Shown here: positions 42,465 to 55,686 of the stretch, in pieces
Numbering within the stretch: the first letter of the stretch is position 1
Layout of the letters: the number at the start of each line of letters is the position of its first letter
Source of the DNA: Escherichia phage vB_EcoM-pEB20
Sequence record: OP114733
DNA: 64,000 nt
Strand: one strand, 5' to 3'
Notes under the pieces: model-generated
Told to the model about the DNA's origin: nothing
Seen by the model: the letters and a program-made list of their open reading frames with translations, nothing else
The model's database searches: none
Translations under genes and position numbers: made by a program

Positions 42465-42770
42465 ATGAAATTAGGCGAAACCAACCGAATTGGTCTTTTA
42501 ACAATATTTGTATCACTTTTTTACGCAGCTCTTTCTGTTGCAGTATTACAAAAGGCTTACAGTATGGATGGTGTTCCTGGTTTTGTATTCTTATCGCCGT
42601 TTTTGCTATTCGTTGGAGCATTGTTATTATATGCCACGACTAGTTTCGACCATAATGTCTGGGTCAATTATAAATGTAAATTGTCTGAAGAAGAACACGC
42701 AGAAGCTCGTAAAAAAGCTATTGAATCTACCAATCTAGAAAATTTCATTAAAGAATGTCGAGGAAAATAA
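42465..42770 (+). CDS. membrane protein
   Basis: 101 aa, two transmembrane helices; C-terminal ENFIKECRGK. Confidence 0.55.
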   Translation: MKLGETNRIGLLTIFVSLFYAALSVAVLQKAYSMDGVPGFVFLSPFLLFVGALLLYATTSFDHNVWVNYKCKLSEEEHAEARKKAIESTNLENFIKECRGK

Positions 42771-47928: not shown

Positions 47929-48291
47929 ATGAAAGCATATCAAATTCTTGAAGGTACACATAAAGGCACTATTTATTTTGAAGATGGTACTCAAGCCCGG
48001 ATTATTGTCTCTAAAACTTTTAAAGAAGACGCTATTGTAGACCCAGAAATTTTCTACGGTTTGCATGCCCGTGAAATTGAAATTGAACATCAACCTAAAG
48101 TTAAAATTGAAGGTGGTCAACATCTGAATGTTAACGTTCTGCGTCGTGAAACTCTAGAAGATGCAGTTAAGCATCCGGAAAAATATCCGCAGCTGACCAT
48201 CCGTGTATCCGGTTATGCAGTTCGCTTTAACTCTCTGACTCCGGAACAGCAGCGCGACGTTATCGCTCGCACCTTTACTGAGAGTCTATAA
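47929..48291 (+). CDS. autonomous glycyl-radical cofactor (GrcA/YfiD-like; T4 Y06I-like)
   Basis: glycyl-radical motif RVSGYAVRF; C-terminal 60 aa resemble E. coli GrcA from memory. Confidence 0.8.
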
Positions 48292-48990: not shown

Positions 48991-49020
48991 GTTTACTTCT
49001 CCTCTAGTTGTGTTACTATA
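48991..49020 (+). promoter_or_regulatory. early promoter with flanking inverted repeat
   Basis: GTTTAC; cctctagttg ... caactagagg flanks the -10 and includes the regB SD. Confidence 0.45.
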
Positions 49021-49047
49021 GACCTGTCAACTAGAGGAGAAATCAAA

Positions 49048-49506
49048 ATGACTATCAATTCAGACGTTTTTATCCGCCGTAATAAACTCCGTCGAATCTT
49101 TGAAACGGAGTTCCGCAAAATAAATGCCGGTATAAAAGATGCTGCAAAGTCTCTTGGACTACCAGGCTTTCATATCAAGTATTCTCAACATCTCTTAGAT
49201 CGTGCCATCCAGAGAGAAATAGATGAGAATTACGTTTTTGAATTATTTCATAAAGTAAAAAATCACGTTAAAGAAGTTGCAGAATTTTTGTCAATGCCGG
49301 CACGTCCAGATGTTGATGAAGATTTTGTCGAAGGTGTCGAGTATCGTCCAGGCCGTTTAGAAATAACTGACGGAAATCTTTGGTTAGGACTTACAGTTTG
49401 TCGCGAAAATCCGGCATTCAAAATGAAGACTCTTCAATGCAGAATGGCTATTATTAACAGTAAACGACTACCAGGAAAAGCTTCTAAAGCAGTGATTAAA
49501 ATCTAG
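49048..49506 (+). CDS. regB: RegB site-specific endoribonuclease
   Basis: 152 aa; MTINSDVFIRRNKLRR...KYSQHLLDRAIQREIDE...RLPGKASKAVIK matches T4 RegB. Confidence 0.92.
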   Translation: MTINSDVFIRRNKLRRIFETEFRKINAGIKDAAKSLGLPGFHIKYSQHLLDRAIQREIDENYVFELFHKVKNHVKEVAEFLSMPARPDVDEDFVEGVEYRPGRLEITDGNLWLGLTVCRENPAFKMKTLQCRMAIINSKRLPGKASKAVIKI

Positions 49507-49514
49507 AGGTAAAC

Positions 49515-50057
49515 ATGAGAAAAGCACTACTCGCTGGTCTATTTGCTCTTTCATTATCAGCACATAGCTCCGAGCATACTTTTAGTAATGTCCAACTCGA
49601 TAACTTGAATTATGCTTATCAGTTTGGGGAACAGTTTTCTAAGGACGGAAAATTTAAAACGCATGAAAATATGCATAAGAAAGGACTTGGATACATAATG
49701 GCCGCAATACTATGGCAGGAATCATCCGCCGGTATTAATCTTAAAGATAAGAAAGGTCACCATGCGTATGGAATGTTCCAAAATTATCTACCAACAATGA
49801 GGGCAAGAATTAACCAGCTTGGTTATAATATGACTGATGCCCAAATTAAGAAAATGCTATCTAAGCGGTCTAATTCAGCCAGATGGGCTTATATCGAATT
49901 TTCTTATTGGTTAAATATACATAACGGGGATATAAGAAAAGCTATATCCTCATATAATGCGGGATGGAAGACAAGTGCTGGAAGTAAATATGCTTCTGAA
50001 GTCCTAGAAAAGGCTAATTACCTTAAATCAAATAAACTACTGGAAATAAAAGAATGA
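49515..50057 (+). CDS. secreted lytic transglycosylase-like protein (SLT motifs)
   Basis: signal peptide MRKALLAGLFALSLSAHS; motifs WQESS, AYGMFQ, SYNAGW. Confidence 0.65.
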   Translation: MRKALLAGLFALSLSAHSSEHTFSNVQLDNLNYAYQFGEQFSKDGKFKTHENMHKKGLGYIMAAILWQESSAGINLKDKKGHHAYGMFQNYLPTMRARINQLGYNMTDAQIKKMLSKRSNSARWAYIEFSYWLNIHNGDIRKAISSYNAGWKTSAGSKYASEVLEKANYLKSNKLLEIKE

Positions 50058-50401
50058 CCAAAATGTTGGCTTTAATAGTTGGCTTGGTTTCATTTAACGC
50101 TCTTGCTAATACTACATATACTGATGTAACGGAGTATACAAACAGAACGGCGTCTGATTATTGCGGTAAAAGTCAAGAGTGTAAAGTAGATTTTTCACAA
50201 AAATTGTTATATGCGTATAAAGACGGAGAAAAAGATGGGGCGTCTAGTAGGTTCAAGGCGTCTACCTTAATTAAAAGATACTATAAAAAATGGCAAATAT
50301 TAGAATGCTCGGTGGCGGAACCTAAAGATAAGGCAGCATGCAATTCTATGGTGGACCGTCTAGTTGACTCTTATAATAGAGGACTTGCAGCAAGTGATTA
50401 A
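50054..50401 (+). CDS. small secreted protein
   Basis: 115 aa with N-terminal signal peptide; ATGA-coupled to the SLT-like gene. Confidence 0.55.
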   Translation: MTKMLALIVGLVSFNALANTTYTDVTEYTNRTASDYCGKSQECKVDFSQKLLYAYKDGEKDGASSRFKASTLIKRYYKKWQILECSVAEPKDKAACNSMVDRLVDSYNRGLAASD

Positions 50402-50861
50402 AAACTATATCAAGGGCGATATTGTCGCCCTGTTTTCTAAAGGTAATAATATTGCTCACGGGTGTAATTGTTTTCATACAATGGGCGCCGGTGTAGCAGG
50501 CCAATTAGCAAAGGCTTATCCAAAAATTTTAGAAGCCGATAAACTTCAAACCGAATTCGGAGACGAGTCTAAACTCGGGACTTATTCGGTTTATGAAAAA
50601 TATTTTAAGACCCATAAAGCTTATTGCTTTAATCTTTATACACAGTTTGAGCCGGGACCTAATTTTGAGTACTCTGCTTTAATGAATTGTATAATAGAAT
50701 TAAATGAATTCGGAAAGAATAAGATAACAAAGCCTGTAATTTATATGCCAAGAATTGGTGCAGGTATTGGTGGTGGAAACTGGGATGTCATCGAAGAGAT
50801 TTTAGATACGTATTCCACTAAACTAGAAATTGTGATTGTTGATTGGGAACCGTTATTATGA
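50394..50861 (+). CDS. macro domain protein (TARG1/DarG-type ADP-ribose hydrolase fold)
   Basis: GTG start assumed; motifs KGDIVALF, HGCNCFHTMGAGVAG, MPRIGAGIGGGNW. Confidence 0.7.
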   Translation: MIKNYIKGDIVALFSKGNNIAHGCNCFHTMGAGVAGQLAKAYPKILEADKLQTEFGDESKLGTYSVYEKYFKTHKAYCFNLYTQFEPGPNFEYSALMNCIIELNEFGKNKITKPVIYMPRIGAGIGGGNWDVIEEILDTYSTKLEIVIVDWEPLL

Positions 50862-51070
50862 ATATACATTATCCACATCCATATGATCCAAAGAATAAGG
50901 CAGTAATTATTCGTCAATGGGAACGCATTTGTCGTACTAAATGTCCAATTAATAGTCCACATGATGTAGATAAAGACTACATCGGAACATTCGTTGAATA
51001 TACCTTTATTGATAAGAAAGGCCGTAAACAACATGTAGAAGAATATTGCTTAAAGGTGACATGGCTATGA
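50858..51070 (+). CDS. hypothetical protein
   Basis: ATGA overlap with macro gene stop. Confidence 0.45.
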   Translation: MNIHYPHPYDPKNKAVIIRQWERICRTKCPINSPHDVDKDYIGTFVEYTFIDKKGRKQHVEEYCLKVTWL

Positions 51071-55404: not shown

Positions 55405-55686
55405 ATGAAAAAATTAGTAATTGGTTTATTCGCAGTAATGATGGCATTCTCTGTTGGTGCTACCACGGGTTCAGCCAGCGGTAGTGCAGGAACTGGTGGT
55501 AACCAGTCTTCTGGGCCTTCCAACGGTTCGGTAAATGCATCACATTCTCAGGGTATTGAGAATATCAAATCAAGCTATATTAATAGCACGGCCGGACAAG
55601 CAACTGAAGCATGGTCAAAGGGTCGAGTAGTTACACGCTCCGTATTCTGTGATATGCCTAATTATGTTGCTAAGTGCGATAAGTAA
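55405..55686 (+). CDS. small secreted Gly/Ser-rich protein
   Basis: signal peptide MKKLVIGLFAVMMAFSVGA; two C-terminal Cys. Confidence 0.55.
   Translation: MKKLVIGLFAVMMAFSVGATTGSASGSAGTGGNQSSGPSNGSVNASHSQGIENIKSSYINSTAGQATEAWSKGRVVTRSVFCDMPNYVAKCDK

Follow-up and report, generated by a model that had tools for sequence, protein, structure and literature searches.

Does the small protein encoded by vs, a gene of T4-like phages, modify a host tRNA synthetase in the cytoplasm, as its annotation says, or does it work in the periplasm together with the product of vs.1, the gene directly upstream? We examined this question for the vs.1-vs locus of Escherichia phage vB_EcoM-pEB20 in a 64,000 nt stretch of sequence record OP114733 (the whole of which is called the window below). 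Bases 49000-51000 of the window are 99.3% identical at the DNA level to the Mosigvirus Escherichia phage vB_EcoM_NBG1, with matches in 672 phage records, and by sequence the window is assigned to the genome of a T4-like Mosigvirus. The open reading frame (ORF) at 49515-50057 (+ strand, 180 aa) is the ortholog of T4 vs.1, and the ORF at 50054-50401 (+ strand, 115 aa) is the ortholog of T4 vs, which is labelled a valyl-tRNA synthetase (ValRS) modifier in GenBank, PHROGs and Pfam. An initial annotation of this DNA described the two products as a secreted lytic transglycosylase-like protein and a second secreted protein; it overlooked that the latter is the named gene vs, with the cytoplasmic role that the ValRS label implies. 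Both genes are long known and widely annotated. We propose, with a probability of roughly 0.55, that Vs.1 and Vs constitute a periplasmic enzyme-plus-partner module, that is, a coupled exported pair. The proposal is based on the identity of the genes, the fold, the motifs, the export-type N-termini and the conserved adjacency; the export and cleavage of both proteins, the muralytic activity of Vs.1, an interaction between Vs and Vs.1 and the direction of any regulation are what we infer from these.

The case for Vs.1 as an enzyme is carried by its motifs and its modeled fold. The initial annotation had pointed to three SLT-domain motifs, ES, GxFQ and YNAGW, and all three are present, with key residues that are invariant in 33 homologs. 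The ES motif (E69-S70, within WQESSAG; 49719-49724, + strand) lies inside the Pfam SLT match and contains the presumed catalytic glutamate, E69, which is invariant along with S71. The GMFQ sequence (G86-M-F-Q89; 49770-49781, + strand) is the GLMQ-like SLT motif II, in which G86, Q89 and the following N90 do not vary, and YNAGW (Y147-N-A-G-W151; 49953-49967, + strand) is the AYNAG-like SLT motif III, with invariant Y147, N148 and G150 and with A149 conserved in at least 90% of the sequences. Y159 is invariant among the 33 homologs as well. The AlphaFold2 model of Vs.1 (pLDDT 86.6, falling to 56-60 over residues 1-20) has the helical fold of goose-type lysozymes and SLT domains, and a Foldseek search with this model ranked GH23 enzymes first (a Ralstonia GH23 chitinase, MltD and Slt). 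Pfam SLT (PF01464) was matched at E≤0.01 by 30 of the 33 homologs, the best at 1.3e-07, and many of the 128 clusters of Vs.1 homologs have a precomputed PF01464 match. The predicted classification of Vs.1 as a GH23-fold, lytic transglycosylase-like protein is thus solid at the family level, and the SLT likeness of vs.1 was in fact published in 2006 (Nolan et al., PMC1524935). A search of NCBIfam gave no match for either Vs.1 or Vs. Weak matches to a metacaspase and an antibody light chain, returned by searches of PDB sequences with the two proteins, were dismissed as not meaningful. In UniRef and GenBank, a number of vs.1 homologs carry the wrong names 'endoribonuclease', 'site-specific RNA endonuclease' or 'RegB', which seem to have spilled over from the adjoining regB gene.

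Both proteins are predicted to be exported. We judged signal peptides with a crude rule-based test of the n-, h- and c-regions (a positive n-region, an h-region of 10-15 hydrophobic residues without charge, and small amino acids at positions -3 and -1) together with a comparison across homologs. For Vs.1, residues 1-18, MRKALLAGLFALSLSAHS (49515-49568, + strand), constitute a predicted Sec signal peptide with cleavage at AHS|SE, leaving a mature protein that starts SEH (162 aa, 18.7 kDa, pI 9.6). For Vs, the corresponding prediction is residues 1-18, MTKMLALIVGLVSFNALA (50054-50107, + strand), with cleavage at ALA|NT and a mature protein that starts NTT (97 aa, 11.0 kDa). Of the 93 ORFs of ≥60 aa on the plus strand of the window, the test flagged five: vs.1, vs, the known periplasmic antiholin rI and two others. 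The N-terminal ~18 residues of both families keep charge and hydrophobicity and keep sequence less well. Among the 33 Vs.1 homologs, the N-termini have no acidic residues, a K or R in the n-region in 32 cases and a maximum 10-aa hydropathy of at least 2.16, with an identity of 0.29, compared to 0.51 over the remaining residues. The N-termini of 25 Vs homologs likewise retain K/R, lack acidic residues and have an uncharged core with a hydropathy of at least 1.9 (identity 0.26 compared to 0.33 for the rest), and in the model of Vs the pLDDT is below 50 at residues 1-7 and 9-13. The signal peptides that the initial annotation saw on the two products are therefore borne out, as predictions, by the test and the homolog comparison, as are the several cysteines of the second product, discussed below. 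The 93-aa ORF at 55405-55686 (+ strand), which starts MKKLVIGLFAVMMAFSVGATTGSASG, and the 101-aa ORF at 42465-42770 (+ strand), which has a hydrophobic N-terminal segment, also pass the test.

The export signal of Vs takes two forms. All 56 Vs homologs encoded directly next to vs.1 passed the n/h/c test, and in the CC31 group of Enterobacter phages (IMG/VR loci L039-L041 and L064) Vs begins MKKLFVLLVVFALSGCK, in which an LSGC lipobox replaces the type-I signal peptide. Since a lipobox is meaningful only in an exported protein, this counts for export of Vs. Thirty-three GenBank records match the CC31-type vs.1-vs locus at ≥90% identity; in GenBank, the lipobox protein is still labelled 'valyl-tRNA synthetase modifier'. 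No internal Met is found between residues 4 and 99 of the window Vs or T4 Vs, leaving no start for a signal-less form. When full-length His-tagged T4 Vs was made in the cytoplasm, the protein was insoluble (PMC8076793). A ValRS modifier is expected to have no export signal and to stay in the cytoplasm, which is not what is predicted for Vs. Export and cleavage of both proteins are thus probable from their N-terminal sequences.

What kind of protein is Vs? The window copy matched phrog_1256, 'valyl tRNA synthetase modifier', at 1.8e-35 over residues 1-112 and shares 68% identity with T4 Vs; its database homologs all carry PF26829. The AlphaFold2 model (pLDDT 86.7) has four helices, at residues 15-37, 41-64, 69-85 and 90-114, following an unstructured segment at residues 1-13. 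A Foldseek comparison of this model with the PDB gave only generic helical bundles (best E 0.4, TM ≤0.5) and no fold relative, and a search of PDB sequences with Vs found nothing meaningful. The family appears confined to T4-like phages: searching 1.84 billion representatives with a profile returned seven clusters, all from T4-like phages, and a 25-sequence profile searched against 5.8 billion proteins gave 18 matches, all of them PF26829, and no cellular homolog. Four Cys codons, spanning 50162-50341 (+ strand), stand out: C37 (50162-50164), C43 (50180-50182), C85 (50306-50308) and C96 (50339-50341). Four Cys are present in all 25 diverse Vs homologs; C37, C43 and C96 are invariant in the alignment, and the third, C85, is found in every sequence with an offset of two or three columns between two subfamilies. 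T4 Vs shares the signal-like N-terminus and all four Cys, and carries one extra Cys in its signal region. In the model, C37 and C43 flank the turn between helices 1 and 2, and C85 and C96 flank the turn between helices 3 and 4, at the same end of the bundle, a placement that fits two disulfides in an oxidizing compartment. Across the subfamilies, which share 20-30% identity, only Cys and Gly are universally conserved, while within the T4-type subfamily the C-terminal helix SMVDRLVDSYNRGL is almost invariant.

The two genes are tightly linked. The initial annotation noted that they overlap by ATGA, and the start codon of vs indeed sits on the stop codon of vs.1 at 50054-50057 (+ strand), an arrangement compatible with translational coupling. 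Homologs of vs.1 and vs were found by tblastn in 2060 and 795 phage records, respectively, and the two ORFs are therefore not chance. The coupling proved stronger than could be seen from the window, being conserved from Escherichia to Acinetobacter T4-like phages. We inspected the gene that follows vs.1 at 70 vs.1 loci from IMG/VR. At 56 of these loci, the distance between the vs.1 stop and the start of a Vs homolog (HMM E 1e-11 to 1e-51) is -8 to +7 nt, and at eight more, which are RB43/CfP1-like, the homolog lies 0.4-1.2 kb downstream, giving 64 of 70 within ~1.2 kb. In the reverse search for vs loci, for which the T4-type sub-alignment was used, vs.1 was directly upstream of vs at 27 of 27 loci. 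From the loci in both directions, the pair spans the Tevenvirinae and the Acinetobacter Twarogvirinae; the genome paper of ZZ1 also describes a 'putative vs' adjoining vs.1 (PMC4177764). The apparent loss of vs from phage vB_Eco_F31 was only an annotation gap, and the vs ORF is intact there. Where Vs is of the non-T4-type subfamily, vs is in every case followed by a third gene that overlaps it by 4 nt (L005:2282-2707, L007:2309-2707, L008:2315-2716 and 22 further loci). Its product, phrog_4957, is 130-148 aa long (about 135) and has a signal ending A|WEKLPGYP and two conserved Cys, so the module in these phages would comprise three exported proteins; the window has no phrog_4957 homolog. In Aeromonas T4-like phages (L006:2299-2739, L065, L067 and L076), a 146-aa ORF whose N-terminus resembles that of a lipoprotein (MKKSIA, then YGC) lies 0.3-0.6 kb downstream of vs.1, with no Vs, and this protein could be an analogous partner.

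We suggest the following model. Vs.1 would be made with a Sec signal peptide and become an ~18.7-kDa periplasmic protein consisting of a single GH23 (SLT/goose-lysozyme fold) domain with an intact glutamate motif set, which most likely cuts the glycan strands of peptidoglycan as a family-1-type lytic transglycosylase. Because the vs start overlaps the vs.1 stop, Vs would probably be translated in step with Vs.1. Vs would be exported as well (the signal is a type-I peptide in the window and of the lipoprotein kind in CC31-group phages) and would fold as an 11-kDa four-helix protein held by its four invariant cysteines. The two proteins would then act jointly in the periplasm, Vs most likely as a binding partner that regulates, localizes or restrains the enzyme. 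An SLT/GH23-fold protein with a predicted export signal agrees with the earlier proposal of an enzyme separate from the endolysin e and the gp5 tail lysozyme. The proposed early operon is likewise supported, since in time-resolved omics of T4 both vs.1 and vs have early RNA and middle protein, and both proteins were detected (PMC9697503).

How does this pair compare with known systems? The closest relatives are T4 vs.1 (P13311) and vs (P13310), orthologs in the same order that encode 181 and 115 aa in T4 compared to 180 and 115 aa here; the window Vs.1 is ~83% identical to T4-type Vs.1. The genes overlap by 8 nt in T4 (Tequatrovirus), in contrast to the ATGA overlap and the GTG start of tk.4 in the window (Mosigvirus). 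Compared to the PF01464 (GH23) enzymes Slt70, MltC, MltE and MltF, Vs.1 is only 13-18% identical to the solved structures, and unlike the family-1 lytic transglycosylases it is a single domain without a lipid anchor or accessory domain, is encoded by a phage and is expressed early. Among the structural neighbors of Vs.1 are GH23 enzymes that were crystallized with small protein partners: PliG in the case of g-type lysozyme, Tsi3 in that of Tse3 and EscI in that of EtgA. In contrast to the lytic transglycosylases of secretion machines (EtgA-EscI, VirB1 and P19), no secretion machine is encoded nearby, Vs is unlike EscI or other known partners, and the Vs-Vs.1 partnership is proposed here from gene linkage. 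Inhibitors of the PliG, Ivy, MliC and Tsi3 type are beta-rich; Vs is modeled as all-helical and has no sequence or fold likeness to them. The closest functional precedent comes from T4 itself, where Spackle (gp61.3) is a small periplasmic signal-peptide protein that controls a muralytic enzyme, the gp5 tail lysozyme (PMC7650644). Spackle, however, targets the lysozyme of the incoming phage and its gene is unlinked to that of its target, whereas Vs.1 is the co-expressed neighbor of Vs, and the folds of Vs and Spackle do not match. Homology of Vs to Spackle or to PliG/Ivy was considered and dropped, as the Foldseek comparison with the PDB revealed no likeness.

Several observations weigh against a periplasmic enzyme-plus-partner module. 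The check suggested in the initial annotation, a search for Pfam SLT, gave a mixed result: the broad matching of the homologs agrees with the assignment, but Vs.1 from the window scored 18.8 bits (E 0.0013, residues 61-154), below the gathering cut-off of 21.3, so that the evidence for the assignment comes from the family as a whole and from structure. Searches of PDB sequences with Vs.1, as a single sequence and as a 33-sequence profile, gave no meaningful relative, and we found no published activity assay of Vs.1 in the literature searched. The n/h/c test also flagged four macro-domain proteins, which are false positives. With respect to Vs, the four Cys at one end of the bundle could, in place of disulfides, make up a Cys4 site for a metal, and the protein could be cytoplasmic. 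With respect to the linkage, tight adjacency is common in the early regions of T4-like phages and is no proof of interaction. Among the 70 loci, vs.1 occurs without Vs only in Aeromonas phages and two jumbo contigs, and at two IMG/VR loci (L028 and L043) truncated forms of Vs, of 85 and 65 aa, adjoin a full-length vs.1. These could be either real pseudogenes or assembly errors; taken as they stand, they indicate that Vs is not an obligatory partner, and they have a bearing on the need for Vs in tolerating Vs.1. Finally, between 1966 and 1984 Neidhardt, Marchin and co-workers reportedly tied T4 vs mutations to altered host ValRS and described in vivo plating phenotypes on valS(ts) hosts.

The last point leads to the alternative that Vs is the cytoplasmic tau peptide that modifies host ValRS, with an N-terminus that is unused or gives partial export; the adjacency to vs.1 would then be plain synteny and Vs.1 an independent periplasmic muralytic enzyme. 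We consider this unlikely, in spite of several points in its favor. Besides the label in the three databases, the ValRS factor in the older literature had a reported size of ~10 kDa, near the 11.0 kDa predicted for mature Vs. The near-invariant C-terminal helix of T4-type Vs is what would be expected for the binder of a conserved target. Muller & Marchin (1975/1977) are cited in secondary sources (PMC8076793) as evidence that the vs product binds ValRS. In a recent preprint (bioRxiv 10.1101/2025.11.20.689424), T4 vs.1 and vs are both non-essential in LB, but vs is depleted more than any other gene in M9-glucose, where a T4 vs knockout plates poorly; this restriction of the defect to minimal medium would suit a ValRS modifier, and the authors read it in terms of translation and nutrient supply. 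Against these points stand the export-type N-terminus of all 56 adjacent Vs homologs and the CC31 lipobox, the lack of an internal start in the window and T4 proteins, the invariance of the four Cys and the strict linkage of vs to vs.1 from Escherichia to Acinetobacter phages. A universal conservation limited to Cys and Gly at 20-30% identity would also be unusual for the binder of a highly conserved cytoplasmic enzyme. If instead Vs acts with Vs.1 in the periplasm, the ValRS label could have one of three sources: a small cytoplasmic pool of Vs with another activity, an association after cell breakage, which is possible because the classical ValRS assays used extracts, or a misassignment of tau to the vs ORF. 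The wider claim, that the product of vs in ~800 T4-like records is periplasmic (in some phages as a lipoprotein) and works with Vs.1 on the cell wall, that ValRS modification arises after breakage or from another ORF and that the M9 defect is an envelope phenotype, is one we advance only tentatively. In the literature searched, we saw no earlier statement that Vs carries conserved export signals and is tightly linked to vs.1, which contradicts its label.

Two further alternatives accept the export of both proteins and differ in what Vs does. The initial annotation suggested superinfection exclusion, cell-wall remodeling or an enzyme/inhibitor pair as possible roles. As a strict poison/antidote system, which is the strong form of such an enzyme/inhibitor pair and a special case of the enzyme-plus-partner module, Vs.1 would be dangerous to the infected cell and Vs would be its dedicated periplasmic inhibitor, preventing premature lysis. 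The gene order, with the enzyme first, the small partner second and overlapping codons, is consistent with this idea, as are the proteinaceous inhibitors and immunity proteins known for GH23 relatives of Vs.1 and the harm that loss of vs causes in minimal medium. The T4 transposon data of the preprint (bioRxiv 10.1101/2025.11.20.689424) offer a weak hint in the other direction, since vs.1 insertions are also under-represented rather than neutral: in three tables of the study, the mean insertion counts range from 27 to 103 for vs and from 15 to 76 for vs.1, compared to ~634-652 for vs.3 and 290 for tk.4. In one comparison sheet, in which pseT is strongly depleted, the log2FC is -1.20 for vs.1 (adjusted p 0.015) and -1.04 for vs (not significant). 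Because insertions are scarce in vs.1 as well as in vs, a simple poison/antidote system is weakly disfavored, and the truncated Vs proteins beside an intact vs.1, the Aeromonas and jumbo-phage vs.1 homologs without Vs and a Foldseek search that found no inhibitor-like fold for Vs all make it distinctly improbable in our view. Alternatively, the two exported proteins could have separate targets within a co-expressed set of envelope genes, Vs.1 remodeling or nicking the sacculus and Vs binding a protein of the host periplasm or envelope (such as a lytic transglycosylase, a penicillin-binding protein or a stress sensor) or, in the manner of Spackle, a component of a superinfecting phage. The export signals on both proteins would fit, and the phrog_4957 gene after non-T4-type vs suggests a broader periplasmic gene cluster. 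Rapid evolution of Vs, with only Cys and Gly invariant, is as expected for a protein that tracks a variable host or phage target, and T4 already encodes one small periplasmic inhibitor of a muralytic enzyme in Spackle (PMC7650644). However, Vs is found only beside or just downstream of vs.1, and its model resembles neither Spackle nor any solved structure in Foldseek. The low insertion counts common to vs and vs.1 fit action in one pathway, although polarity of vs.1 insertions on vs could also explain them. We regard separate targets as very unlikely.

The surrounding genes are tightly packed, and the order regB-vs.1-vs-tk.4 is common to the window, T4, the Dhakavirus IME08 and NBG1. The vs.1 precursor (49515-50057), a predicted exported SLT/GH23-fold protein, follows the regB endoribonuclease gene (49048-49506, + strand; Pfam REGB_T4, 6e-69), which lies outside the pair, after an 8-nt gap. 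The vs precursor (50054-50401), a predicted four-helix protein, is followed by the macro-domain gene tk.4 (50394-50861, + strand; Pfam Macro, 2.2e-06), which closes the block and, with a GTG start, overlaps the vs stop by 8 nt. The product from this start was aligned with T4 Tk.4; a longer ORF with a TTG start at 50364 is an alternative call in the program-made ORF list. T4 Tk.4 has been named AdfM, an anti-DarT2/anti-DarTG2 factor (bioRxiv 10.1101/2025.11.20.689424), and the tk.4 product here has a weak NCBIfam match to DarG. A terminator-like hairpin at 50413-50431 (+ strand), with an 8-bp stem (five GC pairs) followed by a T-run, lies 12 nt past the vs stop within the tk.4 coding region and corresponds to an annotated terminator in phage NBG1. 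Our scan detected two terminator-like sites compared to 1.2 expected, so this hairpin could attenuate transcription after vs or be due to chance. In a promoter scan, promoter-like sites were no more common than in shuffled sequence. Further upstream, a 120-aa ORF at 47929-48291 (+ strand) corresponds to T4 vs.6 and ends with a GrcA/YfiD-like glycyl-radical motif (RVSGYAVRF). This type of motif was already remarked on in PMC1524935, and relatives are labelled 'pyruvate formate-lyase' or 'autonomous glycyl radical cofactor'.

If the ValRS annotation is right, the locus is simply two known neighboring genes. If Vs is instead periplasmic, hundreds of annotations would be misleading. Vs.1 is the third peptidoglycan-directed enzyme-like protein of the reference lytic phage T4, after e and gp5. 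The phage-induced modification of ValRS, a puzzle since the 1960s, merges with the role of Vs.1 into a single question, that of the location of Vs and of which protein it binds, Vs.1 or ValRS. The M9-glucose plating defect of T4 lacking vs makes this question directly testable. Should the periplasmic pair hold true, T4-like phages would carry a conserved early envelope-remodeling module, with relevance to lysis timing, superinfection and phage engineering.

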